Shown here: in pieces, positions 6,124 through 57,528 of the stretch
Position numbering within the stretch: position 1 is the stretch's first letter
How the letters are laid out: each line of letters starts with the position of its first letter
Assembly (NCBI GenBank): GCA_964495695.1
Contig: CAZBWR010000001.1
Span: 77,909-141,908 of the forward strand
From: an uncultured Chitinophagales bacterium
GTDB lineage: Bacteria; Bacteroidota; Ignavibacteria; UBA10030; UBA6906
Direction: 5' to 3'
DNA length: 64,000 nt
Made by a program: the position numbers and the translations under genes
The notes under the pieces: generated by a model
Told to the model about the DNA's origin: nothing
The model's database searches: none
Seen by the model: the letters and a program-made list of their open reading frames with translations, nothing else

Positions 6124-6810
6124 ATGAGATATACCACACTCATTGCCCTTCTATTTGTCGTGAGTACCATAACATTATCCCAGTGGCGTTTTGGTGTAAA
6201 CGGCGGCCTGAACTTTTCCACCGCCATGATTGATCCCGATCCGTCGGGAGGAAGGGCGAGCAAATCCGGCAGGACCGACGTGATTGGCGGACTGACCGCC
6301 GATTACGAACTCTGCAACCGAACGTCCGTCCGCACGGAGCTCAATTACATGCAATACGGCTATCGCTTTGAAGGGACGCAGACATTCGGAAACCAAAGCT
6401 TCACGCAAAAAGAGGATTACAAGGTCAACTATCTTGAAATCCCGATCATGGGAAGATATGATTTCAACGAGGGAGATTTGGAGTTCGCCGCATTTTTCGG
6501 TCCGTTCTTCGGGTTCAGGTTTTGCTCGGAGGAAGAGTACACGAACACGTTCGGCACATCAACACAATCGGGAAAGGCTGACAGGCGCGAGAATACGAGT
6601 ACGCTTCATTTTGGCTTGACCGGCGGACTTGGCGGCGAACTGAAACTGAACAACTCGTGGTCGGCCTATCTCGATGGACGGTATAATTTGGGACTGAACA
6701 ATATCTACAAAGAAGGCCCGAACTTTACTCCCCCGCCGAACTATCAGCAGCCCAACATCAAATACAGATCATTCAATCTTCACCTTGGACTTCTCTATAG
6801 AGTCGATTAA
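6124..6810 (+). CDS. Outer-membrane beta-barrel protein (OmpA-like barrel / porin family)
   Basis: Signal peptide MRYTTLIALLFVVSTITLSQ. Alternating hydrophobic beta-strand pattern with aromatic girdles, and a C-terminal LGLLYRV strand. TAGGAG RBS upstream. Confidence 0.75.
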   Translation: MRYTTLIALLFVVSTITLSQWRFGVNGGLNFSTAMIDPDPSGGRASKSGRTDVIGGLTADYELCNRTSVRTELNYMQYGYRFEGTQTFGNQSFTQKEDYKVNYLEIPIMGRYDFNEGDLEFAAFFGPFFGFRFCSEEEYTNTFGTSTQSGKADRRENTSTLHFGLTGGLGGELKLNNSWSAYLDGRYNLGLNNIYKEGPNFTPPPNYQQPNIKYRSFNLHLGLLYRVD

Positions 6811-6824
6811 TGCAATGACGGAGC

Positions 6825-6852
6825 GACCGGGCAGACATCATGCTGCCCGGTC
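6825..6852 (+). terminator. Candidate stem-loop terminator after the OMP gene
   Basis: Perfect 10-bp stem GACCGGGCAG / CTGCCCGGTC with an 8-nt loop, 15 nt after the stop codon. The trailing T tract is poor. Confidence 0.45.
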
Positions 6853-6897
6853 CTGCCGGATTGCTTTGCATCCGTGCTTTATGTATTATAGGGCAAG

Positions 6898-7593
6898 ATG
6901 CAGGACAGGATGTCGTCAGGTGCTTCACGAATCTTCCGTGAGCCGGTAAACGGACTCACACACGCCGCAGGGGCTCTCCTCTCTATCTTTGGTGTTTTCT
7001 TTTTGCTCAGCGTTGCCGCAGAAGAGGGGAAATCCACACACGTCGTTGCTTTCTCCATTTTCGGAGCGGGGCTTGTTGCCCTGTACAGCGCCAGCGCGTT
7101 ATATCATCTGCTTCGCGCGAGCGACAAGGTTATTGCAGCTCTTCGCAAGATCGATCACACGATGATTTTTGTGTTGATCGCGGGTACTTACACTCCCATG
7201 TGTATGATAGCCCTGCAAGGCTCCCTCGGTCTCACGCTGCTCATTACTATTTGGGCTATTGCAGCTGCGGGCATACTGTTCACGCTGTTCTGGATTAATG
7301 CCCCCCGCTGGCTCTCTACTTCTATTTATGTAGCAATGGGGTGGCTCGCGGTAACGGCAATTGTTCCACTCATGAATACCCTAAGCACCGAGGGACTCAC
7401 ATGGCTGCTTGCCGGAGGCGTGTTCTACACTTCAGGCGCTGTGATCTACGGAATGAAACGCCCCGATCCGTTTCCGGGAGTCTTTGGCTTTCATGAAATT
7501 TGGCATATGTTCGTCATGGCAGGGAGCTTTTGCCACTATATGATGATGTACAGAGCAGTTCTACCCCTTTCCATCGTTGCGGAGTTGCATTGA
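6898..7593 (+). CDS. Hemolysin III / PAQR family membrane protein
   Basis: Seven hydrophobic segments. Signature motifs are SALYH, KIDHTMIFVLIAGTYTP and FHEIWHMFV. Confidence 0.9.
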   Translation: MQDRMSSGASRIFREPVNGLTHAAGALLSIFGVFFLLSVAAEEGKSTHVVAFSIFGAGLVALYSASALYHLLRASDKVIAALRKIDHTMIFVLIAGTYTPMCMIALQGSLGLTLLITIWAIAAAGILFTLFWINAPRWLSTSIYVAMGWLAVTAIVPLMNTLSTEGLTWLLAGGVFYTSGAVIYGMKRPDPFPGVFGFHEIWHMFVMAGSFCHYMMMYRAVLPLSIVAELH

Positions 7594-8180
7594 AGTGTTC
7601 ATCCGTGTTTTTCGTCCTGGGAATCTTTTGTGCGGTTTGCACGGGATTCGCCCAAGACGCGGCGAGGCAATTTCTCGCAGACTTGCCGGCGCCGGCGGCA
7701 GATGCCTCTGAAGCGCTCCACCGTTGTCCGGACACGAACGACACACTCCTTACGCGTTTCATTGACGACTTGACTACTCTCACCCGAGAGGACACAGCAA
7801 ACGGTAAGGATTTACTGCGTCTCCATCACGCTATATTCGTGAAGTTGTTTGGAACGCTTCAACGGAAACTCGAAGAGGATATTCTGGCAGCGGGCGAACA
7901 AATAGACCGGGAAATTCGCAACTGCCCGAAGACCCGCAACGGAAACGAAATGGAAGTGTACCAGGCCGCATGTGTTGAAGAAGCAGAACGGCGGGGCCGG
8001 CTTCGACGCGTTGCCGCTGTCGACGACTACCTTTCGTACGTCAAAGAAGCATGGCCCGGATATCTGCATGAAATCAACGCCATGCTCGCTGCCTCGAAAC
8101 AGGCAGCGTGGCTGCTTGTTTTGCAGGTCGCCCGCAACGCGGCCACAATCACTGAGACTGCCGCACAATTCGCCAAGTAG
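7590..8180 (+). CDS. Hypothetical secreted helical protein
   Basis: The track ORF (7500-8180) overlaps the hemolysin III gene. I trimmed it to the TTG at 7590, which forms a TTGA overlap with the upstream stop and yields the signal peptide (M)KCSSVFFVLGIFCAVCTGFAQ. No family was recognised and the start is uncertain. Confidence 0.5.
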   Translation: MKCSSVFFVLGIFCAVCTGFAQDAARQFLADLPAPAADASEALHRCPDTNDTLLTRFIDDLTTLTREDTANGKDLLRLHHAIFVKLFGTLQRKLEEDILAAGEQIDREIRNCPKTRNGNEMEVYQAACVEEAERRGRLRRVAAVDDYLSYVKEAWPGYLHEINAMLAASKQAAWLLVLQVARNAATITETAAQFAK

Positions 8181-8211
8181 CCCTGTCACATCTCAATATC
8201 AAGGTGCATCC

Positions 8212-9201
8212 ATGAAAATACTTGCATTGCTCGTTGCCGGTGTAGCCGGCCTTGCCGTTGCTCAGACTCCGTCAAACCTCCGCCCCGTTCACACATACTC
8301 GATTGTGGCGCGCGACACCGTCACGGGCGACATGGGCGTTGCAGTGCAATCCCATTGGTTCAGCGTCGGATCGATTGTTACGTGGGCTGAAGCAGGTGTC
8401 GGGGCCGTGGCAACGCAATCGTTCGTCGATCCGGCATACGGCCCGCTCGGACTCGGATTGATGAAAGCCGGAAAAACCTCCCAACAAGCGCTCGAGTCGC
8501 TCATAGCAACAGACCCCGGCAAGGATGTCCGGCAGGTCGCAATGATTGACGTTAACGGCAACGTTGCCACACATACAGGCCAGAAGTGTATTCAGGGGGC
8601 CGGACACATCGTCGGAAAAAACTACTCTGTGCAGGCCAATCTTATGTTGAATGACAAAGTCCCTGCCGCCATGTCACAAGCATATGAAGGCGCCAGGGGG
8701 GATCTTGCCGAAAAGATGATGGCTGCCCTCGATGCCGCCGAGGCTGTTGGCGGCGACATTCGCGGAAAACAATCGGCGGCAATACTGATCGTCAAAGCGC
8801 AATCTACCGGACGTCCATGGGTGGACCGTGTGATGGAACTCCGTGTTGAAGACCATCCGGAACCTCTGAAGGAACTTCGCCGCCTCATCACCGTACACAG
8901 AGCTTACGATCACATGAACCGCGGCGATCTCGCTCTCGAACATAATGACGTTGACGGTGCGCTCCGTGAATATGCCGCAGCAGAGAAGATGTTCCCGGAC
9001 AATCTCGAAATGAAATTCTGGCATGCAGTCTCCCTCGTGAACATCGGGCGTGTGAAGGAGTCCCTCCCGATGTTCAAAACCATTTTTGCGAAAGACATGA
9101 ACTGGGCAACACTTATTCCCAGACTTCCCGCGTCGGGGGTGCTCAATGCGGACGATGCCACTCTAAAAGAGATACTTTCCGTGGCGCCCAAAAAGAAATG
9201 A
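8212..9201 (+). CDS. Secreted DUF1028 (Ntn-hydrolase-like) protein with C-terminal TPR-like helices
   Basis: Start trimmed to the ATG at 8212 (signal peptide MKILALLVAGVAGLAVAQ). The DUF1028 N-terminal signature is TYSIVARDTVTGDMGVAVQSHWFSVGS...AGVGAVATQS. Confidence 0.8.
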   Translation: MKILALLVAGVAGLAVAQTPSNLRPVHTYSIVARDTVTGDMGVAVQSHWFSVGSIVTWAEAGVGAVATQSFVDPAYGPLGLGLMKAGKTSQQALESLIATDPGKDVRQVAMIDVNGNVATHTGQKCIQGAGHIVGKNYSVQANLMLNDKVPAAMSQAYEGARGDLAEKMMAALDAAEAVGGDIRGKQSAAILIVKAQSTGRPWVDRVMELRVEDHPEPLKELRRLITVHRAYDHMNRGDLALEHNDVDGALREYAAAEKMFPDNLEMKFWHAVSLVNIGRVKESLPMFKTIFAKDMNWATLIPRLPASGVLNADDATLKEILSVAPKKK

Positions 9202-17443: not shown

Positions 17444-18529
17444 TTAATCTCCAAAACAGGTGCCGACTGCGCGGGCGGCGAACACAAGCTGCGAGTCACC
17501 GGGAACGAGCCGTTGCTTGCCGATTGCATCCTTTAGTGGCACGGTCACCACATGGTTTCGCTGCAGGCTGGCCAGCACGCCGAACTCTCCGCGTGACGCC
17601 GCCTCAAGGGCAACGGTGCCGAAGCGGGTTGCAAGAATCCGGTCGAATGCCGTGGGGCTTCCACCGCGTTGAACGTGTCCAAGCACAGTCACGCGTGTCT
17701 CGAGTCCGGTTTCATCCTCGATTTTTTTGGCAACCAACTCGCCGATCCCGCCGAGCTGCACGGGGTCTGTGCGCTTCTTATCCATTGCCTTTACACTTAC
17801 GTCGCCGCCGACAGGCTTGGCACCTTCCGCAACGGAAATGATACTGAACTTCGCCCCTTTGCTGCGCATCAGAACGTGGTCGTAAATTTTGTCCCAGTGG
17901 AATGGAATCTCGGGAATAAGCACAATATCAGCCCCACCGGCCAGCCCTGCGCCGAGGGCAATCCATCCCGCATAGCGTCCCATTGTTTCGACAACGATCA
18001 CACGGTGATGGGCCGACGCGGTTGTTTGCAATCTGTCGATCGCCTCGGTAGCAACGGCACGTGCCGAATCATGTCCGAAGGTGATGTCAGTCGCATCCAA
18101 GTCGTTATCGATGGTCTTTGGGACGCCCACGACGTTCAGCCCCATCTCATGTAATTTTTGCGCGATGATTTGCGTGCCGTCGCCGCCAATTGTAATGAGC
18201 GCGTCAAGTCGGAGATCACGATAATGCTCGATGACACGCTGGGACGCATCAATGATCCTGACGTTAGCCCCTGTGCCGACAGGAAAGTGAAAGGGGTCCC
18301 CTTTGTTCGAGGTCCCGAGAATTGTTCCCCCGACATTGATGATGCCCATGACATCAATTGGCGAGAGTTCACGATGACGACCTTCAACCATTCCCTCGTA
18401 TCCATCGAGAATGCCAATCACCGTTGCGTTGAAGTGCGACATGGCCGGCTTTGCAACACTGCGGATAACGGCATTGAGTCCGGGACAATCACCGCCACCC
18501 GTAAGTATTCCGATACGTTTCAGTTTCAT
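17444..18529 (-). CDS. pfkA: 6-phosphofructokinase (ATP versus PPi dependence not resolved)
   Basis: Start trimmed to the ATG at 18529 (AAGGA upstream). Motifs GILTGGGDCPGLNAVIR, TIGGDGT, GVPKTIDNDL and MGRYAGWIAL are present. Confidence 0.9.
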   Translation of the reverse strand: MKLKRIGILTGGGDCPGLNAVIRSVAKPAMSHFNATVIGILDGYEGMVEGRHRELSPIDVMGIINVGGTILGTSNKGDPFHFPVGTGANVRIIDASQRVIEHYRDLRLDALITIGGDGTQIIAQKLHEMGLNVVGVPKTIDNDLDATDITFGHDSARAVATEAIDRLQTTASAHHRVIVVETMGRYAGWIALGAGLAGGADIVLIPEIPFHWDKIYDHVLMRSKGAKFSIISVAEGAKPVGGDVSVKAMDKKRTDPVQLGGIGELVAKKIEDETGLETRVTVLGHVQRGGSPTAFDRILATRFGTVALEAASRGEFGVLASLQRNHVVTVPLKDAIGKQRLVPGDSQLVFAARAVGTCFGD

Positions 18530-18658
18530 TCTGCATCCTTTGTCAGATTTCATTGCCCGGAGGAGTTCTGTCCGTGGTTCCGGTTGATAAATATACGGTT
18601 TTCAACGGATTTATGTAAGAAACGCTGCTTGAAGATTGAGCAAATGTTTTGCATCTTT

Positions 18659-19567
18659 ATGTCCACGCGCATGACACTTACCGAGGAATACCGCAAGTCC
18701 TTAAAAATGGCAGAGGCCGAAGAGTTACTCGACCTCGTTATCTATCGTCCCATCGCCTTCGTTCTCGTGAAGCTGGTGTACCGACTGCCGATTACCCCTA
18801 ACCAGGTGACGTACGGCGCGCTTGTTGCCGGACTGATTGCAGCCTGGCAGTTCGCACTCGGCACGGTTGAAGGATTCGCGTGGGGAGCCGCGTGGTATGC
18901 AATCGCCAATGTGCTTGACTGTGGCGACGGGATGCTAGCCCGCCTTCAGAAGAGCGGTACGCCGCTCGGCAGACTTGTTGACGGCATTGTTGATTGGATC
19001 TCCAGTGTCGCAATTTTCTTCGGGCTAGGAGTAGGGCTCCACGCCTTCACCGGCAACCCGCTCGTTTGGCTCCTCGTTTCAGCCGCAGGTGTGCTTTCGG
19101 GGTACCATGCCATGATGTTCGATAAACGGCAGCAGGAGTATATTTCTGCAGTACGCGGAGAGAAGAGTTTCATTGAAAGGGAACACGAGAAAATTGAGCA
19201 GGAATTGAACAAACTTACCGCCGGCAAGGCTAATCCCTTGCGCCGGCTTGTTCTTAAAACGTACTTGCGCTACATGAGCGTGCAAGAAGGAACATCCCCC
19301 AGCGACGCTGCAGCCGTGTTCTATCCGCCGGAAATTTACCGCAGGGAGAATCTGCGTATCATGCGGTGGTGGACCTGGCTCGGTCCGACAACCAACCGAA
19401 CTTTGTTGATGGTTGCGGCGTTGATAGGCCAACCCGAGTGGTTTTGCTGGATTGTTGTAATTCCTGCAAATGCCTATCTCCTCGGTATGACGCTCTGGCA
19501 ACGCAGAATAACATGCCGTCTCGACGGCATTGTTGGCTCTAACAGCTCAGTGGTAACGGCCGCGTAA
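18659..19567 (+). CDS. CDP-alcohol phosphotransferase family membrane protein (copy 1)
   Basis: Start trimmed to the ATG at 18659 (18671 is also possible). Signature D-x2-DG-x2-AR-x8-G-x3-D-x3-D is LDCGDGMLARLQKSGTPLGRLVDGIVD. Multiple TM segments. Confidence 0.8.
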   Translation: MSTRMTLTEEYRKSLKMAEAEELLDLVIYRPIAFVLVKLVYRLPITPNQVTYGALVAGLIAAWQFALGTVEGFAWGAAWYAIANVLDCGDGMLARLQKSGTPLGRLVDGIVDWISSVAIFFGLGVGLHAFTGNPLVWLLVSAAGVLSGYHAMMFDKRQQEYISAVRGEKSFIEREHEKIEQELNKLTAGKANPLRRLVLKTYLRYMSVQEGTSPSDAAAVFYPPEIYRRENLRIMRWWTWLGPTTNRTLLMVAALIGQPEWFCWIVVIPANAYLLGMTLWQRRITCRLDGIVGSNSSVVTAA

Positions 19568-19623
19568 GTATTCAGAACTTAGCCCCGGCATCAAACTCTC
19601 CAATCATAACCGCAAGTAATCAT

Positions 19624-20682
19624 ATGGGTCAGATTCTTCTGGATCGCAACGAAAACCAGTTCGGTCCCTCACCCGCGTGCTACGAAGTATTGCGCAGCGC
19701 TAACCTCGAACAGCTCAGCTTCTATTCACGGGAGTTCGCTCGGGGGAAGAAAAGTCTTCTCTCGGAACGCCTATCTGATCGCCTGGGGATTCCCGAAGAG
19801 CGGATCCTTCTCAGCTACGGCAGCGAGGATATGCTCAAGCAGGTGGTGCACTGCTATCTCCATAAAGGGGAGCGATTGCTCCTTCCCCAGCAATCATGGT
19901 GGTACTACAAGAAAATTGCCAAGGAGGTGTTGGGTGATCACGTCGAGTATCCTCTTCGCGAGCAGGGCAACAGATTTGTGTTTGATGTCAACGAAATCCT
20001 CCACTTGCATGACAAGCACAAACCGCACGTCATCCTTGTCGCGTCCCCCAACAACCCCACGGGCAGCTCGATGCCGGCGGCAGATATTGCACGCCTGGTG
20101 AACCATTGCACGGGCTCCTACATCGTGTTGGATCAGGCGTATTTCGGTTTTGATGAGTCGGGCAGGGACGACATCAAGGAACTGCTGGATGCTCACGGAC
20201 GGCTCATCATTCTCCGTACGTTTTCAAAATACTACGCTCTCGCTGGCCTCCGCATCGGATACACATGTGTAGGACGGGAGATCAAACGACTCATCGAGTT
20301 CAGCGCCCGGTATCTCGGCTATAACCAGTTGACAGAGCGCATTGCTTTAGCGGCGCTTGAGGACGGTGAGTACTACCGCCGCATCACGTCGTCCATGAAC
20401 GAAAGCAAGGCAATGTTCATGGAGGAGTTTGCCAAGCTGAAAGGAATCAAGCCTTTCGCATCGGACGCCAACTTCATGATGATCCGGTATCCCGTTGAGC
20501 ACAGGCAGCAACTTGCCAACGGTCTGAAGGAGAGTGGCGTGATCGTGAAATTCCTTGACGATCCGGGAGTGAGCGACTGCATCCGCATCACAATCGGGAC
20601 ACGCGAACAGAACGAGCTTGTCATGAAGGCATTCAAAGATGTGACAGGAAGCCGGAGGGTGTTGGCCGAGGCGGTTCGTTGA
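19624..20682 (+). CDS. Class I/II PLP-dependent aminotransferase (HisC/CobD-like)
   Basis: NPNNPTG motif, and FSKYYALAGLRIGY containing the PLP lysine. Size (352 aa) is typical of the histidinol-phosphate aminotransferase / threonine-phosphate decarboxylase family. Confidence 0.85.
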   Translation: MGQILLDRNENQFGPSPACYEVLRSANLEQLSFYSREFARGKKSLLSERLSDRLGIPEERILLSYGSEDMLKQVVHCYLHKGERLLLPQQSWWYYKKIAKEVLGDHVEYPLREQGNRFVFDVNEILHLHDKHKPHVILVASPNNPTGSSMPAADIARLVNHCTGSYIVLDQAYFGFDESGRDDIKELLDAHGRLIILRTFSKYYALAGLRIGYTCVGREIKRLIEFSARYLGYNQLTERIALAALEDGEYYRRITSSMNESKAMFMEEFAKLKGIKPFASDANFMMIRYPVEHRQQLANGLKESGVIVKFLDDPGVSDCIRITIGTREQNELVMKAFKDVTGSRRVLAEAVR

Positions 20683-21401
20683 TTACGGCCGTTGTTTTAG
20701 CAGCGGGCATTTCGTCCCGCCTGCGCCCGCTGACGGACCATAAGCCCAAGTCGCTCCTCGAGGTCGGAGGGAAAACCCTTCTGGGAAGGAATCTGGACGC
20801 GCTGCAGCAGAACGGCATTCGCCGGTGCGTGCTGGTAACGGGATATCTGCACACAATGGTGGAGGAGTTTGTCCGTTCGGGCGGTTGGACTATGGAGATC
20901 GATTTCCTGCACAACCCTGTCTTCGAGAACACGAACAACAATTATTCGCTCTGGATCACCCGGCCTGCAGTTCTCGGAAACGACATGCTCCTGCTCGATG
21001 CCGATATTCTGTACGACTCCGCGCTCCTCGCCCGACTGCTCGAATCATCGCATGAAGATTCACTGATCATGAGACGAAGTGATTCACTCGGCCATGAGGA
21101 GATCAAGTGCGAACTCGATGGTGATGGCATAATCCGCAGAATCGGCAAGCAGATTGATCCGGCAAAAGCTGCAGGAGAGTCAGTCGGCATTGAGCGCTTT
21201 TCCGCAGGAACAACAGCCCGTCTGTACGACGTACTCTCGCGCCGTCATGTACACAATGAATTCTACGAGGCATCGTTTCAAGAAATGATTGACGGAGGAG
21301 TGCGCATACACGCGATCGAAAGCGGTGAACTTCCATGCGTCGAGATTGACACGCCGGACGATCTGGCAGTAGCGCAGGAACTCGCCCATCGCATCCGATG
21401 A
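20679..21401 (+). CDS. Nucleotidyltransferase (NTP_transf_3 / LicC / IPCT-like sugar- or alcohol-phosphate cytidylyltransferase)
   Basis: N-terminal VVLAAGISSRLRPLTDHKPKSLLEV nucleotide-binding loop. The TTG start overlaps the upstream stop (TTGA). Confidence 0.8.
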   Translation: MITAVVLAAGISSRLRPLTDHKPKSLLEVGGKTLLGRNLDALQQNGIRRCVLVTGYLHTMVEEFVRSGGWTMEIDFLHNPVFENTNNNYSLWITRPAVLGNDMLLLDADILYDSALLARLLESSHEDSLIMRRSDSLGHEEIKCELDGDGIIRRIGKQIDPAKAAGESVGIERFSAGTTARLYDVLSRRHVHNEFYEASFQEMIDGGVRIHAIESGELPCVEIDTPDDLAVAQELAHRIR

Positions 21402-22273
21402 CACCGCAGCGCTATTCCTATACCTCATCGATCAAGTCCGATGCTTCGGACGAAGTGATCAACACATGGTTGATCCGCCCCCTTGCGGGAATTTTCGTAC
21501 GTCTTGTTTTTCACACCCCCATCACTCCGAACCAGGTCACAATCCTTTCCACCCTCATCGGCTTGCTCGCAGCATACCAATACCTTGGAGGGACGCCTAC
21601 TGCCTTTGTTGTCGCAGGGTTGCTGGTCACGCTGAAGGATGTGCTTGATGCGGCAGACGGACAACTCGCGCGGGCAAGACAGCAATTCAGCAGGCGGGGA
21701 AGATTCCTCGATTCAATCGGGGACTTTATTGTAAATGCGGCACTTTTCACGGCAATCGGCAGCGTGCTATACGCTCTTACCCGGTCGAGCCTTTACCCTG
21801 CCCTTGCGTTCCTCGGATTCCTGGGAATTACGCTCCGTGTGTCATATCACGTGTATTATCAGACGGCATTCCTGCATTTACGAAATGCTTACAAGGTCAA
21901 CAGGTTGACAGAAGAAATCCGTAACGAGGATGAGTCCGGGGACAAAATTGCTTTGACGTTGCAGAAGGTATTTCAATGCTTGTATGGTTGGCAGGACCGC
22001 CTGATGGTACGCATCGATACATGGTCCCGCAACGGCATTTCCTTCACGGATGAGGAGAACGTAAAATGGTACAGCGATACCACTGGTTTGCGTTTGTCGG
22101 GACTGTTGGGACTGGGAACGGAGATGTTCGTATTGATGCTCTTCTCCGTATTCAATGCGCTCGGGCTGTACCTTGCAGTAAACGTGTTCCTGCTGAACGG
22201 GATCTGGCTTGCCTCCATCCTTTACCGAAGATTCGTGCTTTCCCGCGCCGTTACAACGGCCCCGTCTCGCTGA
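21398..22273 (+). CDS. CDP-alcohol phosphotransferase family membrane protein (copy 2)
   Basis: ATGA overlap with the nucleotidyltransferase gene. Signature LDAADGQLARARQQFSRRGRFLDSIGD. It shares ITPNQVT and the overall layout with copy 1. Confidence 0.8.
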   Translation: MTPQRYSYTSSIKSDASDEVINTWLIRPLAGIFVRLVFHTPITPNQVTILSTLIGLLAAYQYLGGTPTAFVVAGLLVTLKDVLDAADGQLARARQQFSRRGRFLDSIGDFIVNAALFTAIGSVLYALTRSSLYPALAFLGFLGITLRVSYHVYYQTAFLHLRNAYKVNRLTEEIRNEDESGDKIALTLQKVFQCLYGWQDRLMVRIDTWSRNGISFTDEENVKWYSDTTGLRLSGLLGLGTEMFVLMLFSVFNALGLYLAVNVFLLNGIWLASILYRRFVLSRAVTTAPSR

Positions 22274-25200
22274 GCAGATTCTGCATAATGGATTTGTGCT
22301 GTTCCTCAGTGAGGCCGAGTTGATTGCGCAAGCGTTCAAGGTTGTCCGCCTCGCCCAGAGTGCGGTCACTCTGTCCCATGCTGTCGCGCAACGCCTCCGT
22401 GTAGGTTTCGAGTTTTACGGAACGCTCCATCACGGCATGATCACTATCGTTGATGTTCAGCGACGTGCGCACTGCCTTGAGCAGCGCCGTCTCTTCTTCT
22501 TGGGGCACTCCTTCCGTCCACATATGTTTGAGGAAACTGCGGTAGAGCGTGACAGATTGCTTTCGAAGTCGTGAACGCGCCTCGTTGATCACGCGCTCTT
22601 TCGATTCCTCTTCGCGGCGCCACATCGCGCCGCGGTTTGACCGTTGCTCGAAGACGCGCCGCGCTTCTTCCTTGCGCCCCAACTCATTCAGGATGTCCAT
22701 TTCGTAATCCTGTGCCCGGGTGTTCGACGGATCGATGGCATAGATCGTTTCGATTTCCGTGCGCGCCTTGTCGAACTGGCGCCGACGGTAGCATTCTTCA
22801 ACGAGCTTCAGCGCAGAATCGATTTTTGTCCTCCGGATCGAGCGTTTTTCTTCTTCTTCCCGCTCCTTTTGCATGTGTCCGGAAATTTCTTTCTGCAGTT
22901 CTTCCACTTTGTGGAGATGCTCTTCACGCCAGCGGCGGATGCCCTCTTTCCGCTTGAGTTGCTGGTGGCGCGCCTCTACAATCTCCATTTCGAGCCGCTT
23001 GGCTTCATCCTCCTCGGGATTGACGAGATAGATCTTCGTTACTTCCTTCATCGCCTCTTCGAATTTCCGCTCGGCCATATACTCCCGGGCACGCTCGAGA
23101 TAGAGACGAAGTTTCTTCTGCTGGGCGAGCCGGCGCCCCTCGGCAATTGCCTGCCGGATTGCCTCTTCATGATTGCGGGTGAGTTCCTCCTGCTCCAGCT
23201 TCATGCGCTCGATTTCCACCTGACGGAGTCGCTCGGCTTCCTGTTCCTTCCGCCGTTGCTCCTCCTGCAGCCTGCGCCCTTCTTCTTCGATGCGACGGGC
23301 TTCCTCTTCAGCCTGGCGGCGGGCTTCTTCCTCAATACGGCGTTGCTCTTCTTCAAGGCGTCTGCGTTGCTCTTCGGTAACGCGTTGCTGCTCCGCCTCC
23401 ATCTGGCGCCGGTATTCGGCCTCAAGCTTCTTTTGTTCCTCCTCCTCTTCCCTCAGTCGTCGTTCACGTTCGACGCGCTCCAGTTCACCTGCGGCTTCAA
23501 GACGCCTGCGCTCTTCCTCGAGCTTGGTGCGCAAATCCTCTTCGATGCGTTGCAGTTCCGCCTGCAGCCTTTCCTCGGCCTGATGTTCCAGCCGTACCCG
23601 CTCGACTTCAAGTTCGGCTTCTGCCTCACGCTTCATCCGCTCTTCCGTCTCGGTTTCGCTGCGACGGCGCTGGTCCTCCTCGGCCCGGACACGGGCTGCT
23701 TCAGCCTCCCGGCGCTCCTCTTCCTTCCTCAGGCGGTCCTCTTCCGTCCGGCCGAGCTCTGCTTCGCGTTCGAGACGTTTTCGCTCGGCTTCCAGCAGTG
23801 CCTTTTTCTCCTCGTCCAACCGTCTGCGTTCATCCTGAATCTGCCGGTGAATCTCTTCTTCACGGCGCTTCCGCTCAAGTTCGTCTGTTTTGCGCTTCGC
23901 TTCAAGTTCTTCCAGTTGGCGTTGGCGCTCCAGCTCTATGTGATGCTTCTGCTGATCGAGTTTTGCACGTAGTTCTTCCTCCACGCGTTTCCGTTCGGCT
24001 TCCAGTCTGGCCTGGGCTTCACCCTCAATCCTTTTTCGCTCTTCTTCAAGCCGGCGCTGGGCTTCCTGAGCGATGCGGATGCGTGCCTGCTCTTCCTGCT
24101 CACGTAAATCCTGCTCACGTTTACGGGAGGCCTCTTCCTCAGCTTGCTGACGCTTTTCTTCCGCAATGAGGCGTGCCTTCCGTTCCTCTTCGTAGCGCTT
24201 GCGTTCTTCCTCGAGCTTCCGTGTCGCCTCTTCAAGTTTGCGGCGGATTTCCTCTTCAGCACGGCGGTAAGATTCCTCCATCTCTTTCCGGCGGGCCTCT
24301 TCCGCCGCACGGCGACGTGTTTCCTCCTCGGCGAATCGGCGTTCTTCTTCTTCTTCCTGCTCACGGCGAAGTTGTTCCGCCCGGATGGCAGCTTCAATAA
24401 TCTCGCGTTGCCTCGCCAACTCTGCCTCCACACGGCGCCTCTCTTCTTCGGCACGTTGGCGAGCTTCCTCGGCAAGCTTGCGCTGCTCCTCTTCCTCCTT
24501 TCGGCGTGCCTCTTCGGCAAGCCTCAGCAGTTCTTCCTCCTCTGCACGGCGGTTCGCTTCCTCGGCGAGTTGCATCGCTCGTTCTTCGGCAGCGCGGAGA
24601 CGGGCCTCCAATTCGGCCCTGTAGTGTGCTACCTCATCCTCCGCCTTTCTTTTCGTTTCCTCTGCTTCGCGAATTGCTGCTTCCGCAATGCGCCGCTTCT
24701 CTTCTTCCCCTGCCTTGATAAGGGTTTCAAGCTCTTCACGTTGGCGGGCAAGCTCCTGATCAGCGATGCGGCGGGTTTCCTCGGCTACGCGACGGACTTC
24801 TTCTTCCGCCTTGCGCTGCGCTTCGATCGCGACACGCTGCCGTTCTTCCTCCTCCGCTTTGAGACGAGCCTCCATCTCTAAACGCTGACGCTGGATTGCC
24901 GACTCTGCACGCTGTTGTGCCTCTTCGGCTTTACGAAGCGCCTCCTCTGCAATCTGCCTCTTCTCCTCTTCTCCGGCCTTGATGACTGCTTCAAGCTGTT
25001 GGCGTTGGAGGATCAGCTCCTGCTCGGCGCGCTGACGTGCCTCTTCAGCCGCACGACGCTGCTCTTCTTCCTGCTTGCGCCGCTCCTCTTCTGTCCGACG
25101 GCGCTGTTCCATTTCCTCCGCCTTCTTGCGGGCTTCTTCGGCAACGCGTACGCTCTCCGCCTCGATCGCCTTGAGTTTTTCCTCAAGCTCGGCACGCTGC

Positions 25201-25853
25201 CGTGCACTTTCGGCATCGGATTTCTTTCTCGCCTCTTCAACCTTCAACGCCGCCTCAACCAATGCGCGTTGACGCGCCAGTTCTGCTTCAATCATCCGGC
25301 GCGATTCCTCATCGAACCGTTTCTGTTCCTCGTCTTCTTCATAACGGACGCGGCTTACAAACGACAGCGCACCATCGTCGCCCACTTCAAGTGTGACAGG
25401 TTCGCCGACAGGAACGGATTTTGATTTCAGATGGATGGTTTCGACCGATGTGGCGGCATGTGCGCCGTGTTCGCCTGTTCCATTTCCTTTGGCAGGAGAT
25501 TGTCGTTGCTGCCGCTCTTCTTTCTCTCGCTTGCGTGCCAGGAGTTCCTTTGCAGCACGGAGTTGTTCAGCACGGTCTGCCTGCTTTTGACCGTTGGAGG
25601 GTGATGCAACTTGCTGCTTCGGGGATGGTTGTGGTGCCACGTCGGTATGCCTCTTCGGGCTTGCCTGTTCCAAAGCGTATTGTACCCGTTCCCTGTAGGC
25701 GAGCGCATACGGGTTCTGAGGGTCCGCATCCATGGCCTGTTGGACAAGCCTCAATGCTCCCTCATAGTCAGCGACCTTGTAGAGCTTGTCTGCAAGCTTC
25801 AGGTATTCGCCGCTTTTCTTCCTTCTCTCGTGTGCTTCTTCAATCTCAGCCAT
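22251..25853 (-). CDS. Giant (1200 aa) charged-helix protein with TPR-like modules at both ends
   Basis: Single uninterrupted ORF. An N-terminal TPR-like unit (aa ~15-60) is followed by a P/Q/S linker. Aa ~171-915 are almost pure E/R/K/A/Q/L. Two further TPR-like units (aa ~915-960 and ~1010-1055) precede a ~100-aa C-terminal helical domain. No family was recognised. Confidence 0.8.
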   Translation of the reverse strand: MAEIEEAHERRKKSGEYLKLADKLYKVADYEGALRLVQQAMDADPQNPYALAYRERVQYALEQASPKRHTDVAPQPSPKQQVASPSNGQKQADRAEQLRAAKELLARKREKEERQQRQSPAKGNGTGEHGAHAATSVETIHLKSKSVPVGEPVTLEVGDDGALSFVSRVRYEEDEEQKRFDEESRRMIEAELARQRALVEAALKVEEARKKSDAESARQRAELEEKLKAIEAESVRVAEEARKKAEEMEQRRRTEEERRKQEEEQRRAAEEARQRAEQELILQRQQLEAVIKAGEEEKRQIAEEALRKAEEAQQRAESAIQRQRLEMEARLKAEEEERQRVAIEAQRKAEEEVRRVAEETRRIADQELARQREELETLIKAGEEEKRRIAEAAIREAEETKRKAEDEVAHYRAELEARLRAAEERAMQLAEEANRRAEEEELLRLAEEARRKEEEEQRKLAEEARQRAEEERRRVEAELARQREIIEAAIRAEQLRREQEEEEERRFAEEETRRRAAEEARRKEMEESYRRAEEEIRRKLEEATRKLEEERKRYEEERKARLIAEEKRQQAEEEASRKREQDLREQEEQARIRIAQEAQRRLEEERKRIEGEAQARLEAERKRVEEELRAKLDQQKHHIELERQRQLEELEAKRKTDELERKRREEEIHRQIQDERRRLDEEKKALLEAERKRLEREAELGRTEEDRLRKEEERREAEAARVRAEEDQRRRSETETEERMKREAEAELEVERVRLEHQAEERLQAELQRIEEDLRTKLEEERRRLEAAGELERVERERRLREEEEEQKKLEAEYRRQMEAEQQRVTEEQRRRLEEEQRRIEEEARRQAEEEARRIEEEGRRLQEEQRRKEQEAERLRQVEIERMKLEQEELTRNHEEAIRQAIAEGRRLAQQKKLRLYLERAREYMAERKFEEAMKEVTKIYLVNPEEDEAKRLEMEIVEARHQQLKRKEGIRRWREEHLHKVEELQKEISGHMQKEREEEEKRSIRRTKIDSALKLVEECYRRRQFDKARTEIETIYAIDPSNTRAQDYEMDILNELGRKEEARRVFEQRSNRGAMWRREEESKERVINEARSRLRKQSVTLYRSFLKHMWTEGVPQEEETALLKAVRTSLNINDSDHAVMERSVKLETYTEALRDSMGQSDRTLGEADNLERLRNQLGLTEEQHKSIMQNLLSETGPL
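23109..25343 (-). repeat. Low-complexity, quasi-repetitive purine-rich coding tract (E/R/K/A/Q helix)
   Basis: GAR/CGN/AAR/GCN codons dominate. Recurring peptide modules include ELARQR (aa ~191, ~367, ~478) and IKAGEEEKR (aa 291 and 380). There is no proline between aa 152 and 946. The tract generates long shadow ORFs on the plus strand. Confidence 0.8.
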
Positions 25854-27813: not shown

Positions 27814-29289
27814 TCACTTCTGGAGCAGCATCTTCCGTACTTGAACAAATCCTGCCGCCTCAAGCCGGTAGAAGTAGACGCCGCTCGGCATCCCTTCAGC
27901 ATGGAACACACGTTCATGCAAGCCGGGACTTAGTTCCTCATTCACCAACGTGGAAATCTGTCTGCCAAGTATGTCAAGAACCCTGAGTGTTACAAAAGCT
28001 TCGCGTGGCACTTGGAATCTCATCACAGTCTGCGGATTGAAGGGATTGGGATAATTCTGTTCAAGCTTGAACGAGAGCGGAGGATCATTCTCAGCTACAT
28101 TAGTAAGTAACGGCGTGAACGAGAATGCCCGCTCGGACGGCGTGCTCGTGGTATCGGATGTTCTTGCCGTCACGCGCCAGAAATATCGTCTGTTCGGTTC
28201 AAGCACCAAGGGGACTGTGTGGAATGTATCACGGATACCTCCGGCCAAAAATACAGGCGTCGAAAAAAGTGAATCGGATGCGATTTCAATTGAATAGGAA
28301 ACCGAATCAGCAGGGTTCAACGGAAACGATCTCCGCCACACGAAGGGCTGCAGTACAGGAATCCAGACAGAGCCTGATGGAGAAACGAGTCGGAACGGAG
28401 CAGGCGGCAGACTCCTCACCTGGGCCGAAAAGTTCATACGCGCATCACTTGCCGCCGAATCTCCGAAAGCATACCGCCAATACCCGGGATTCTTTTTTAG
28501 AATGAGTTGAAAAACACTCGTCAAATAGCGTCGGGTGAGAAGCAGTTGCTGAGAGCGTGAGAGCGATCCGTTCGGGTCGGTGAAGTCGAAGATATTCGTA
28601 TCCATGAATCGGGTGTGATTCGCTTGCAGAATCACAGGCAAGGCCTTCACGGCGCGGGCATTCTGGTACATCGGAGTCTGATTGGTGGCGACCGGGGTTA
28701 TGCCGTCACTTCCGCCGCTTATCAAGTACACGACGCCCGCAATCCTGTTCATGACATTGATCGCGGAAGGGTTCGTCTCGGCCGCCGCAAGGGGTGCGAC
28801 GACATCAACGCGAAGGTCACGCGCGGCTGCAAGCAAACTTGCTCCGCCCCCCATCGAATGGCCGCTCAAGCCAACTGCCGATGTATCAATCAAATGGTGG
28901 AAACGGGACGACGGCACCGATGTTTGCTGCCGGATATAGTCAACGCAAAACAGGAGATCCTCTGCGAGTTGATCGTGCTGCGTGTCGGGAAACTGCGGCG
29001 CGATAACCACGAAGCCATGTGTCGCAAGATGTCGGAAGTGCGAGAGATAGTACCCGGTTTGCATGAAGAACCCGTGTCCGAAGGCAATGATCGGGTAGCC
29101 TCCGGCAGGATCGACCGGTGTTTCGCTCCCCTCATTTGTCGCCGGATAGTAGATGCGACAGGAAAGAGAGCGGGTTCCCCGTTGCAATGTTTGTGAAGTC
29201 CAGCCGGCTTGGAATGGCCCGTCATTTTCGGGCTGGGAGAATAAACTTGGCGCACAGATCACCAGAAATACAAGTACGTGCAAGCGCAT
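27814..29289 (-). CDS. Secreted alpha/beta hydrolase (cutinase/PETase/chlorophyllase-like) with T9SS C-terminal sorting domain
   Basis: Signal peptide; YPIIAFGHGF...ATHGFVVIAPQ; nucleophile elbow GHSMGGG; downstream GGSDGITP and QANHTRF. A beta-rich middle domain follows. The C-terminal NYPNPFNP...GVYFYRLEAAGFVQVRKMLLQK is a Por secretion tail. Confidence 0.8.
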   Translation of the reverse strand: MRLHVLVFLVICAPSLFSQPENDGPFQAGWTSQTLQRGTRSLSCRIYYPATNEGSETPVDPAGGYPIIAFGHGFFMQTGYYLSHFRHLATHGFVVIAPQFPDTQHDQLAEDLLFCVDYIRQQTSVPSSRFHHLIDTSAVGLSGHSMGGGASLLAAARDLRVDVVAPLAAAETNPSAINVMNRIAGVVYLISGGSDGITPVATNQTPMYQNARAVKALPVILQANHTRFMDTNIFDFTDPNGSLSRSQQLLLTRRYLTSVFQLILKKNPGYWRYAFGDSAASDARMNFSAQVRSLPPAPFRLVSPSGSVWIPVLQPFVWRRSFPLNPADSVSYSIEIASDSLFSTPVFLAGGIRDTFHTVPLVLEPNRRYFWRVTARTSDTTSTPSERAFSFTPLLTNVAENDPPLSFKLEQNYPNPFNPQTVMRFQVPREAFVTLRVLDILGRQISTLVNEELSPGLHERVFHAEGMPSGVYFYRLEAAGFVQVRKMLLQK

Positions 29290-34740: not shown

Positions 34741-37434
<2,694 letters not shown>

Positions 37435-37469
37435 CCTGTCAGAAAAATCATGCGTTAAATACCCGGCAG

Positions 37470-37919
37470 TTATTTCTTGAGAACACCCGGCCAGTTCTTG
37501 TTCCCCTCTTTGATGTTTCCGGGAACATCCTCCTCCCAAGCCTTCTGTGCCTCTGCATTGGCATTGAGATAGAGCTTGCCATCCACTATTTTCCAGACCA
37601 GAGGGTCTCCTGTCCAGGTGTAATTTCGGGAAACTGCATATGCACAGTACCCCCCGAATGCGGGGGCGTAAGCTTCGGGACCATTCTGAAACGCCACCCG
37701 GTTCTCCTCTTTCGAGAAGTGCCATGTGGCATCCATCCACAGATACGTGAACTTCTCTGACCCCTTCACAGGCTTGGCTTCGGCAAAATATGCCACGGGA
37801 TCGTATCCCCGGATCGCGACGCCGGATTTCGTCAGATCAAACTTCGGCTTTTCCCCCGCAAAAGATACTGCAAACAACACGACGATAACAAGCAAAGCGA
37901 GAACAAACCTGGAACGCAT
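37470..37919 (-). CDS. YHS domain protein, exported
   Basis: Signal peptide [29 protein letters not shown]...FGGYCAYAV pattern of the YHS-domain family (Cys form). GGAG RBS upstream. Confidence 0.75.
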
Positions 37920-57318: not shown

Positions 57319-57528
57319 TTGTACTCCGAAGCATTCAAATATTCAAGAGCATCATGCACGAATCCGGGTTTATTTTTCTCCTATGACAATGTGAACGAAC
57401 CGTGACAATTTTGTGATACTTTCCGGTTATTCTTTCACCCGAACAGGCGAATTTGATATTCACACGGGAGAATGCGTATGTTTCCGACAACTGCCGAAAC
57501 CCCTGTACCAACGAAAGGATACACCGCC

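Follow-up and report, generated by a model that had tools for sequence, protein, structure and literature searches.

The 64,000-nucleotide stretch of DNA analysed here (the window) encodes a protein of 1200 residues whose core combines an ER/K charge pattern with a sparse, straight hydrophobic stripe that recurs every 11 residues, a combination not described for any characterised protein. Modelling presents the core as a highly charged helical rod with a contour of up to ~100 nm. Our preferred reading, to which we assign a probability of roughly 0.42, is that the protein is a segmented, self-associating cytoplasmic rod or scaffold. The features of the gene and its product are collected in Table 1.

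Table 1. Features of the rod gene and the encoded protein, with positions counted along the window.
Feature	Residues (aa)	Coordinates	Strand	Basis or remark
Whole ORF		22251..25853	(-)	1200 aa plus stop, ATG start, no interruption
N-terminal TPR-like hairpin module (module 1)	1-64	25662..25853	(-)	AF2; helices 2-26, 30-43, 48-64
Pro/Ser/Gln-rich variable linker	65-179	25317..25661	(-)	mostly disordered; short helix aa 93-114
Rod segment 1	180-381 (202 aa)	24711..25316	(-)	AF2 helix 180-381
First predicted helix break	382-393	24675..24710	(-)	AF2; adjoins indel hot spot aa ~397-424
Rod segment 2	394-696 (303 aa)	23766..24674	(-)	AF2 helix; strongest hendecad stripe
Second predicted break	697-736	23646..23765	(-)	AF2 low pLDDT, register shift, indels
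Rod segment 3	737-915	23109..23645	(-)	AF2 helix 737-927 (191 aa); z(11/3) +6.0
TPR-like hairpin module 2 and 75-aa connector helix	916-1009	22827..23108	(-)	AF2, Pfam TPR_2
TPR-like hairpin module 3 and 53-aa connector helix	1010-1092	22578..22826	(-)	Pfam TPR_14, AF2
C-terminal four-helix domain	1093-1200	22254..22577	(-)	two tandem ENT/Tic110/TerB-like units

A conserved gene and its terminal modules

The initial annotation described one uninterrupted minus-strand ORF of 1200 aa, which is borne out, and took a lack of orthologues as the mark of an artefact. Twelve MAG orthologues of 650-1331 aa (one shortened by a contig end) were found, with the architecture common to them. Because these are encoded at twelve independent MAG loci, the ORF is, on comparative sequence grounds, a real gene, neither chance nor artefact. 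Synteny is conserved across the orthologue loci, and no near-identical DNA repeats were found within the ORF. Identity among close orthologues is 72% for the N-terminus, 64% for the core, 61% for the C-terminus and 21% for the linker, which makes the core about as conserved as the end domains; such position-by-position conservation would not be expected of a mere spacer. Hydrophobic class is kept at 77% of the hydrophobic positions.

The core (aa 171-915, ~745 residues) is 85% E, R, A, Q, L and K (29.9%, 20.1%, 13.4%, 7.9%, 7.8% and 6.2%, respectively) with seven glycines, much as the annotation had described it (almost only these six residues, with a handful of glycines); charged residues make up 58% and the net charge is about -39. 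Prolines occur solely at aa 45, 48, 66, 74, 76, 78, 85, 120, 148, 152, 946, 1042, 1117 and 1199, leaving a proline-free stretch of 793 aa (aa 153-945) exactly where one had been claimed, between aa 152 and 946. Repeated motifs noted earlier are also present, ELARQR in three copies (aa 191, 367 and 478) and IKAGEEEKR in two (aa 291 and 379), although the latter lie 88 aa apart and not 89. No signal peptide or transmembrane helix is found in the 1200-aa protein, which is predicted to be cytoplasmic. A long, charged, proline-free helical region is shared with TolA domain II and with SMC-type coiled coils, the two families whose recognition would have placed the protein elsewhere according to the annotation; neither gives a Pfam or NCBIfam match, there is no N-terminal transmembrane anchor (maximum Kyte-Doolittle hydropathy 0.52 in 19-aa windows) or C-terminal TolA domain III, and SMC ATPase heads and a hinge are lacking too.

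The proposal that the protein ends in TPR-like units holds up, and the three hairpins (aa ~13-64, 916-960 and 1012-1058) are copies of one module. AF2 pLDDT is about 90 or higher over aa 11-60 and about 83-93 for the C-terminal hairpins (85-97 in a C-terminal-only model; 84-97 for the module 2 region in model mcd1f56eee04a). Against Pfam TPR_2 (cut-off 27), module 1 (aa 17-47) and module 2 score a sub-threshold 16.9 and 24.1 bits; module 1 is 49% identical to the first module of a relative, P0018, which passes TPR_2. Module 3 passes TPR_14 (29.8 bits, cut-off 23.5, with the C-terminal 285 aa searched alone) and carries an invariant DKA..E.ET.YAIDP motif. The 34-aa helix-turn-helix of each hairpin has the small and large residues of TPR proteins in their usual pattern, module 3 passes a TPR model, and modules of relatives pass TPR_2. 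Unlike those of TPR proteins, the hairpins here are isolated, with ~850 aa and ~50 aa of helix between them and no tandem of three or more, and lead on into long charged helices, one per hairpin (a "bead on a helical string"); relatives such as P0018 show this arrangement five to ten times over. The linker after module 1 has many indels among orthologues and an AF2 pLDDT of about 29-60, mostly below 50; the short beta-looking segment once assigned to aa ~130-170 is neither a predicted strand nor conserved.

An internal half-repeat had been noticed at the C-terminus, and it is real: the last ~105 aa contain two copies of a helical unit resembling that of EMSY ENT, Tic110 and TerB-like domains, with the pattern Y..L...W.(D/E)G.....E...L...R..L.I...(D/E)H (also written Y..AL..AW.DG.L...E...L..LR..L.IS.EEH). 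The domain profile A3 matches Tic110 (4bm5, 4e-7), the EMSY ENT domain (1uz3, 1utu and 2fmm, ~1e-5; 1uz3 at 1.1e-5) and, weakly, TerB-like 2ou3 (0.047). Among 43 relatives, Pfam finds ENT in 20 (best 2e-14), Tic110 in 19 and TerB in 4; the window protein alone gives E = 0.28 against Pfam ENT, far below threshold, and Foldseek gave no fold confirmation for this domain, whose model is elongated. Profile comparison places the domain in a known superfamily, ENT/Tic110/TerB-like, and in this respect the reading of the annotation needs qualifying. No named family in Pfam or NCBIfam covers the whole protein, as the annotation had supposed. The contexts in which the unit is otherwise known (a chromatin reader, the chloroplast translocon, tellurite resistance) differ from this one. 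The relatives that share the ENT-like domain have it fused to a receiver domain in 24/43 cases and to a class III cyclase domain in 3/43; domains of both types function as dimers.

Charge network and hydrophobic stripe of the core

Opposite charges in the core are enriched at i+3 and i+4 (z +6 to +15; E followed by K/R at i+3 and i+4, z +11; K/R followed by E at i+4, z +15) and like charges at i+4 are under-represented (z -9 to -11), giving 0.35 opposite-charge i+4 pairs per residue versus 0.12 in tropomyosin. Charge also alternates coherently with a period of ~7.9 residues (7.75-8.0 aa in all 10 orthologues tested; spectral power ~30 versus ~3 in shuffles). The period lies in the range of about 6-9 residues that the FT_CHARGE criterion for single alpha-helices, reportedly set out by Gaspari et al. 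in 2012, requires of regularly alternating charge. It is also close to the E4(K/R)4 pattern, which forms the most stable single helices (PMC5378345). The period is incommensurate with 11, and therefore the charges appear to be organised for intrahelical pairing, not around a seam.

Hydrophobic residues follow a different rhythm. Their periodicity is strongest at 3.66 residues (z +14 at 11/3), and a heptad signal, the mark of the a/d seam in a canonical coiled coil, is absent from the core as a whole (z(3.5) = -0.8, R(3.5) = 0.04, versus z +19 and R 0.50 for the tropomyosin control). Weak heptad signals are confined to aa 180-255 (z(3.5) +2.1) and the connector helix at aa 949-1023 (z(3.5) +3.6). 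Large hydrophobics occur about twice per 11 residues with a 4+7 spacing and are phase-coherent at 11/3 (hendecad), forming a straight, sparse stripe that also includes Ala; a Viterbi register fit favours hendecad (z +5.6) over heptad (z +0.5). Within segments the phase concentration R(11/3) is 0.42-0.58, versus tropomyosin's 0.50 at 3.5, with large hydrophobics at two-thirds of the density in tropomyosin. The peak lies at 3.655-3.68 in 12/12 orthologues and in the distant P0016, and the 11/3 alignment is kept across orthologues of differing length. Autocorrelation peaks at lags of 55 and 88, both multiples of 11 residues. Of the core positions a/d/h, 35% are hydrophobic and 20% Ala, so about 55% are apolar (a 64%, d 47%, h 55%) and 30% charged. 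Contiguous hydrophobic networks of the i,i+3,i+7 kind are no more frequent in the core than chance predicts (2 observed versus 2.9 expected; z +4.7 in tropomyosin). The annotation had named a heptad hydrophobic seam as the sign of an ordinary dimeric coiled coil; there does appear to be a seam, conserved in all orthologues, but it is hendecad.

The charge pattern alone would suit a monomeric ER/K single alpha-helix (SAH) that links TPR-mediated binding sites as a long, semi-flexible spacer or spring, and this is a somewhat unlikely alternative. The core shares with SAH/CSAH domains (myosin VI/X, caldesmon, INCENP, CAF-1 KER) a very high E/R/K content, dense i/i+3 and i/i+4 opposite-charge pairs, a charge period of ~8 residues, the lack of a heptad seam, and a position between two functional modules (PMC5378345, PMC4183817). 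The i,i+3,i+7 networks, not being in excess, also speak for this reading. Its hydrophobics would then be merely tolerated, shielded by the aliphatic parts of Arg, Lys and Glu, and their 11/3 phase would have been inherited from internal duplications of units that are multiples of 11 residues, as the lags of 55 and 88 aa indicate. Yet hydrophobic content is 16% versus roughly 10% (~9.6% in accepted SAH domains; PMC5378345), the hydrophobics hold to a single face no less tightly than those of a true coiled coil, whatever the length of the orthologue, and P0016 shows the same 11/3 coherence with 20% hydrophobics including Trp and Phe. In length the core exceeds characterised SAH domains 3.5- to 10-fold (average ~75 aa, myosin maximum ~200 aa; PMC5378345), and it is bacterial, probably in three segments, and conserved position by position in the manner of a folded domain. 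The SAH reading of the annotation thus has partial support: the ER/K network and the lack of heptads speak for it, the hendecad stripe, the hydrophobic content and the probable segmentation against it. As to the ~100 nm ruler that the annotation derived from it, the contour length stands at 112 nm. The persistence length of SAH domains is said to be ~15 nm (Sivaramakrishnan, 2008); a worm-like-chain estimate puts the rms end-to-end distance of such a monomer at ~54 nm, which makes it a coil and not a rigid ruler.

Segmentation, proposed packing and genomic partners

The continuous helix considered in the annotation is not supported as stated. AF2 models the core as three helices (Table 1), at a pLDDT of only 41-79, and both breaks fall at indel hot spots among orthologues (aa ~397-424 and aa 673-757) and at register shifts. 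The core helix is probably split into three conserved segments by two variable joints, which are probably flexible. In segment 1, where identity is 67-82%, the weakly heptad-like aa 180-255 are the most conserved stretch and aa 255-381 are hendecad (z(11/3) +3.2). Segment 2 is 61% charged, has z(11/3) +9.6 and R(11/3) 0.45-0.58, and holds 55-aa super-repeats (lag-55 autocorrelation z 10). At the second break the pLDDT is 41-50 throughout (below 50 over aa 699-719 and 724-729), the register shifts by about -3/+8 residues with a hydrophobic phase jump of about +65 degrees, and register jumps lie at aa 695 and 757; the segment 3 helix enters hairpin module 2 without a break. Core indels are 0, 4 or 7 mod 11 in length, and hence face-preserving, in 19/35 cases, counts that are not independent and that the alignment method may have favoured.

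Three segments and two linkers recall a cytoskeletal protein that forms filaments like those of intermediate-filament proteins (a crescentin/FilP/Scy-type CCRP), whose dimeric rods would assemble laterally with strictly periodic acidic and basic bands (~1.2 nm) setting the axial stagger. Myosin rods and intermediate filaments pack with a stagger that their charge periodicities dictate, and the long-range coherence of the charge period here invites the analogy; the conserved core positions fit as well. The Streptomyces CCRPs Scy and FilP are likewise very long bacterial cytoplasmic helical rods with 11-residue periodicity, almost no supercoil and Ala contributing to core positions (PMC9858780). 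They have a DivIVA-like N-terminal motif (PMC9858780), whereas a Pfam search of this protein up to E <= 1 finds no DivIVA match and its N-terminus forms a TPR-like hairpin, the other end being ENT-like. The charge is also much higher here (58%), core occupancy much lower, the charge period incommensurate with the hendecad, and the phylum unrelated. No IF-like head or consensus motif is found in Pfam or NCBIfam either, the ~7.9-aa period is explained equally well by intrahelical pairing, and strongly net-negative rods would repel each other. The TPR-like and ENT-like ends, with the receiver-domain paralogues, suggest docking or signalling over bulk polymerisation, and we regard a polymer of this kind as improbable.

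An 11/3 stripe keeps to a single side of a helix that has essentially no supercoil, and here both the phase of the stripe and its residues are conserved. For the segmented, self-associating rod that we prefer, the helices would therefore most likely lie side by side along the stripe in a two-stranded (or higher) hendecad-type coiled coil resembling Scy/FilP. Hendecads show almost no supercoiling, and dimeric Scy/FilP rods use Ala-rich cores (PMC9858780); the seam occupancy here (about 55% of a/d/h apolar, 30% charged) is low for a coiled coil and counts against this reading, as do the lack of enriched i,i+3,i+7 networks, a charge period incommensurate with 11, the core net charge of about -39 and the core pLDDT of 41-79. 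With its ER/K network each strand would remain helical and soluble, and the ENT-like domain would set the register by dimerising, perhaps along with the heptad-like aa 180-255 and 949-1023. Dimerisation would turn the floppy 112-nm chain into a stiff rod of ~95 nm. The isolated hairpins would act as docking modules, and the ENT-like head may also recruit receiver-domain paralogues.

In sister lineages the rod gene follows a gene for a single-pass membrane protein whose cytoplasmic N-terminus has the same TPR-like hairpin (pairs in L011, L012, L017/18, L020, L021 and L022), and because of this pairing the rod would probably be a membrane-tethered scaffold or spacer. The partner gene was not found in the window or at the ten closest orthologue loci, which weighs against the preferred reading. 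Here the rod gene adjoins two CDP-alcohol phosphatidyltransferase genes, a nucleotidyltransferase and an aminotransferase, an adjacency that is conserved; these genes are convergent with it and therefore not co-transcribed. Adjacency to lipid head-group genes would fit an amphipathic "3-11" helix lying on a membrane or lipid body, as would the 11/3 hydrophobic periodicity (such helices occur in apolipoproteins, alpha-synuclein, perilipins and LEA proteins). This is nevertheless highly improbable. Lipid-binding helices of this type have a broad apolar face with Lys/Arg at its flanks and are neutral or positive in net charge; here the stripe is narrow and sparse (about 2/11 positions), Lys is just 6%, Arg and Lys do not cluster along the edges of the stripe, the net charge of the core would be repelled by anionic bacterial membranes, and the convergent adjacency, which persists together with PFK, looks like plain synteny.

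A possible structural class and an unnamed family

A bolder reading, which we consider rather unlikely, takes the core for a bacterial rod of a new structural class: an unsupercoiled helix, stabilised by ER/K pairing and ~100 nm long, with a length several times that of any SAH characterised so far. The protein would then be a cytoskeletal or signalling scaffold of Ignavibacteria-like bacteria not known before. The 11/3 stripe and the ~7.9-residue charge "barber pole", two incommensurate periodicities, would coincide every 55 residues, after 5 hendecads, 7 charge periods and 15 turns, and this super-repeat would program a defined self-assembly or a role as a ruler. Homotypic contacts between TPR-like hairpins would anchor the rod to the inner membrane, and it would be coupled to orphan receiver-domain paralogues.

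If the core is monomeric, no other natural single alpha-helix would come close to it in length; it would also be a bacterial SAH conserved at the sequence level, which challenges the picture of SAH domains as spacers that evolve fast. If self-associating, it would illustrate how an ER/K network and a sparse hendecad seam together build a straight, highly soluble rod of ~100 nm, a design principle for protein engineering and for understanding twilight-zone "coiled-coil" predictions. Either way, the protein defines an unnamed family in uncultured bacteria of the Bacteroidota/Ignavibacteria type, with TPR-like hairpin "beads" on charged helices and an ENT/Tic110-like head. Linked as it is to membrane proteins, receiver domains and cyclases, this family is a candidate cytoskeletal or signalling scaffold.

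The rod gene and its orthologues

The rod protein is cytoplasmic and conserved; it has three hairpin modules of TPR type and a double unit resembling ENT/Tic110, and in its helical core of ~745 residues an ER/K charge network occurs together with a conserved hendecad (11/3) hydrophobic stripe. It is encoded by a single uninterrupted ORF (see table), and direct counting bears out nearly all that the initial annotation had said of its sequence. The stretch between aa 152 and 946 is free of proline, and aa 171-915 contain seven glycines and are dominated by E (29.9%), R (20.1%), A (13.4%), Q (7.9%), L (7.8%) and K (6.2%). The motif ELARQR does occur three times (aa 191, 367 and 478) and IKAGEEEKR twice (aa 291 and 379), the latter pair being spaced by 88 residues rather than the 89 first given. 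The coding strand is purine-rich (plus-strand AT skew about -0.38 along the ORF). No internal DNA repeat of the ORF exceeds ~78% identity over 40 nt, so its repetitiveness reflects composition and periodicity, not recent duplication or mis-assembly. Its 3' end overlaps that of the convergent CDP-alcohol transferase ORF (21398-22273, plus strand) by 23 nt (22251-22273). An exact look-up of the protein gave no matching record, and a promoter/terminator scan, whose coverage excludes FCB-group promoters, was uninformative. The protein has no signal peptide and no TM helix (top 19-aa hydropathy 0.52). Pfam matches are of TPR type only and NCBIfam models give none; TolA-like, SMC-like and membrane-anchored readings are ruled out by the lack of both a TM helix and a family match.

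Coordinates of the rod gene, its predicted core helices and other genes
Feature	Location	Strand	Remarks
Rod ORF	window 22251..25853	minus	uninterrupted, 1200 aa
Core helices (full-length AF2)	aa 180-381, 394-696, 737-927		breaks at aa 382-393 and 697-736
Convergent four-gene cluster	window 18158-22273	plus	two CDP-alcohol phosphatidyltransferases, HisC/CobD-like PLP enzyme, nucleotidyltransferase
Upstream membrane-protein genes (loci with rod-gene orthologues)	L012:5928-8408, L017:3897-6104, L020:3665-5860, L022:1-2313, L011 ~6512-8467	same as rod gene	
Alpha/beta hydrolase	window 27814-29289	minus	PETase/chlorophyllase-like matches, type IX secretion C-terminal sorting domain; fits an FCB-group (Bacteroidota/Ignavibacteria) origin of the window
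999-aa ORF	window 34741-37740	minus	no NCBIfam match at E <= 1e-5
Hybrid histidine kinase	window 54430-57318	minus	PAS-containing, CckA-like matches; divergent from the next
Receiver-domain ORF	window 57472-58233	plus	

The C-terminal 285 aa of the rod protein as query yield seven fragmentary homologues (38-68% identity), and word-indexed searches return three matches for a C-terminal-domain profile and one for aa 1-260. The family is poorly and fragmentarily represented in the word-indexed search set; an exhaustive profile search (777 relatives) and a genome scan (12 loci with orthologues, one genome per species) were productive. An assembly or annotation artefact, which the initial annotation would have suspected had orthologues been absent, is ruled out by these 12 independent loci together with the lack of close internal DNA repeats. 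All 12 come from MAGs labelled Ignavibacteriota, Ignavibacteria, "Chlorobi", "Chitinophagales" or Bacteroidota. The orthologues are 732-1331 aa long at 11 loci (the remaining one, at L012, is 650 aa and ended by a contig edge), and their termini, where present, agree with those of the window protein; the N-terminus of the L006 orthologue is missing owing to a contig end. Among the ten closest orthologues, identity is 72% in the N-terminal module, 64% in the ER/K core and 61% in the C-terminal region, and 21% in the linker (aa 65-179). Since chance identity estimated from composition is ~17% for the core, the core evolves in the manner of a folded domain, not of a compositionally constrained spacer. 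Public names of cluster members are limited to "hypothetical protein", "trichohyalin" (an automatic label) and "CheY-like/response regulator".

Hairpin modules and the C-terminal double unit

TPR_14 matches aa ~1015-1047 above the Pfam threshold, and TPR_2 matches aa 17-47 and aa 917-946, both below it. The AF2 model of the C-terminal 285 aa (pLDDT 90, pTM 0.71) runs hairpin, 75-aa helix, hairpin, 53-aa helix and four short helices, while the N-terminus in the full-length model is predicted as helices at aa 2-26, 30-43 and 48-64 (pLDDT about 90 or higher over aa 11-60). Foldseek with both AF2 models gives no match at E <= 0.001, only generic TPR proteins (TM ~0.05-0.25), because elongated models defeat global comparison. 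By alignment, the three hairpins, which are mutually alignable, are copies of one module. An HMM of the C-terminal region does not detect the N-terminal hairpin directly; its homology to the C-terminal modules follows from an intermediate, the hairpin-repeat relative P0018 (901 aa, about ten units of a hairpin plus a ~50-aa charged helix), whose modules match both the N-terminal and the first C-terminal hairpin. P0018, P0022, P0025, P0027 and others make up an unnamed class of 700-900-aa proteins with 5-10 repeats of a single TPR-like hairpin and a ~50-aa charged helix (one cluster member is auto-annotated "trichohyalin"). The linker at aa 65-179 is variable and predicted to be disordered; the "beta-looking" segment proposed at aa 130-170 has no strand in the AF2 prediction and is not conserved among orthologues.

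The internal half-repeat noticed near the C-terminus is real, in that the last ~105 aa are a tandem pair of helical units. The profile built from 31 homologous C-terminal domains matches Tic110 (4bm5) at 4e-7, the ENT domain of EMSY (1uz3, 1utu, 2fmm) at ~1e-5 and, weakly (0.047), the TerB-like protein 2ou3. Pfam matches among 43 scanned relatives sharing this domain are to ENT (20), Tic110 (19) and TerB (4); 24 of the 43 end in a receiver (REC) domain and three carry a class III (adenylate/guanylate) cyclase domain. Orphan response regulators of 380-560 aa (P0064, P0074, P0089, P0103, P0108 and others) have the order TPR-like hairpins, Pro-rich linker, ENT/Tic110-like double unit and C-terminal REC domain; the genes surrounding P0089 are uninformative on function. 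In tblastn, the window region 54430-58233 matches the REC part of such relatives only, not their TPR-like or ENT-like parts.

Charge pattern and hydrophobic stripe of the core

The dense i/i+4 ER/K pattern described for the core stands up to measurement, with 0.35 opposite-charge i+4 pairs per residue vs 0.12 in tropomyosin (a control sequence, which gave its known charge period of ~19.7 residues). Opposite charges at i+3 and i+4 are strongly over-represented (z +6 to +15); pairs of like charge are under-represented at i+4 and over-represented at i+7. In 10 of 10 orthologues tested, the charge spectrum shows a single large and coherent peak, at 7.75-8.0 residues (power ~30 vs ~3 shuffled), resembling the E4(K/R)4 pattern from which the most stable single helices are built (PMC5378345). 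A heptad seam, which would have indicated an ordinary coiled coil, is not found in the core (z(3.5) = -0.8, R(3.5) = 0.04; tropomyosin, z +19 and R 0.50).

The hydrophobic residues of the core peak instead at 3.66 residues, or 11/3 (z +14), and in 11-residue rows they sit at positions 3, 7 and 10, equivalent to hendecad h, a and d. This stripe keeps one phase between aa ~255 and ~700, then jumps by about -3/+8 residues and holds its new phase as far as aa ~915. A peak at 3.655-3.68 is found in 12 of 12 orthologues, although their cores span 280-960 aa; the distant orthologue P0016 (1081 aa) has the same 11/3 peak (z +15), and its hydrophobics (20%) include Trp and Phe. Within segments R(11/3) is 0.42-0.58, a concentration on one face equal to tropomyosin's. 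The stripe is thinly populated: large hydrophobics make up 16% of the core, and of the a/d/h positions hydrophobics fill 35%, Ala 20% and charged residues 30%. Contiguous i,i+3,i+7 hydrophobic triplets are not enriched in the core; those at i,i+4,i+11 and i,i+7,i+11 are (z ~4), which amounts to some two hydrophobics in each hendecad. Charge repeats with a period incommensurate with 11 and coincides with the stripe only every 55 residues (the lag of the strongest autocorrelation in the core, z 10). The layout of the charges therefore serves pairing within the helix, and on it is superimposed a straight stripe of hydrophobics and Ala.

The main rival, the monomeric single alpha-helix (SAH) spacer of the initial annotation, accords with the charge statistics and with the absence of dense hydrophobic networks, but leaves both the conserved, phase-coherent stripe and the positional conservation of the core unexplained; we consider it somewhat unlikely. 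An 11-mer amphipathic helix lying on a lipid surface is very improbable, given the narrow stripe, the low Lys content and the net charge of about -39. We favor, at a probability of roughly 0.4, a stripe-associated, unsupercoiled, segmented rod of putative function and oligomeric state. Helices would associate along the stripe into an essentially unsupercoiled rod, two-stranded or higher, comparable to Scy and FilP, which are hendecad rods rich in Ala (PMC9858780). The ER/K network would stabilize and solubilize each strand, dimerization of the C-terminal head would set the register, and the hairpins would serve as docking sites for partners, the outcome being a segmented scaffold or tether of ~100 nm. 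That the protein is an IF-like filament former is quite improbable.

Probable segmentation, reach and genomic context

One uninterrupted helix of 745 residues, as first envisaged, is not what the full-length AF2 model predicts (pLDDT 69, pTM 0.35), since it breaks the core twice. Nearly all core indels in pairwise orthologue alignments concur, falling at aa ~397-424 and ~673-757, the second hot spot coinciding with the hendecad register jump. From model and alignments we therefore take the rod to be made of three conserved segments, about 30, 45 and 28 nm long, connected by two variable joints. Among the 35 core indels of 4 residues or more, the length is 0, 4 or 7 mod 11 in 19, which leaves the stripe within +/-33 degrees (~27% expected by chance); this preference for the stripe face is suggestive only, because orthologues share indels and alignment may favor such gaps.

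The persistence length reported for ER/K helices is ~15 nm, and that typical of two-stranded coiled coils is 100-150 nm. The contour length of the proposed ruler is 112 nm (745 x 0.15 nm); as a lone ER/K helix, a worm-like chain would reach ~54 nm rms end to end, vs 94-99 nm at coiled-coil persistence lengths. A 100-nm "ruler" thus needs lateral association.

The rod gene follows genes for a methyltransferase and an M15 D-Ala-D-Ala dipeptidase in a conserved order, and convergent to it lie genes for a CDP-alcohol transferase, a nucleotidyltransferase, an aminotransferase and a second CDP-alcohol transferase, then PFK. The CDP-alcohol phosphatidyltransferases give weak matches to inositol-phosphate-type synthases, and the cluster resembles a pathway leading to an unusual polar head group of lipids or to a compatible solute. 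Distant relatives (L019, L020) too have the cluster beside the rod gene and PFK. We read the position of the rod gene beside lipid genes as synteny and not as a functional link, because the genomes sharing this order are closely related (PFK 85-89% identical) and the lipid genes are convergent.

The context in sister lineages was taken from shorter or more distant orthologues (L011, L012, L017/L018, L020, L021 (partial) and L022). Directly 5' of the rod gene at each examined sister locus is a gene for a 730-830-aa membrane protein with a charged N-terminus, one or two copies of the rod's hairpin module (profile E 1e-8 to 2e-5) placed in that cytoplasmic N-terminus, a single TM helix (hydropathy 2.4-2.6) and TPRs in its extracytoplasmic part. 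No homologue is found in the 64-kb window or the flanks of the ten closest loci (L001-L010). This gene, the only contextual lead to a partner, suggests that the rod may be tethered to the membrane via hairpin modules.

Each ingredient of the rod protein, be it ER/K helix, hendecad rod, TPR hairpin or ENT/TerB-like unit, is already known. What is not known from elsewhere is their combination, with an ER/K helix several times longer than any characterized SAH that carries a conserved hendecad stripe with a 55-residue super-repeat. The family to which the protein belongs, "hairpins on charged helices", has no name, and its members have links with membrane proteins, receiver domains and cyclases.
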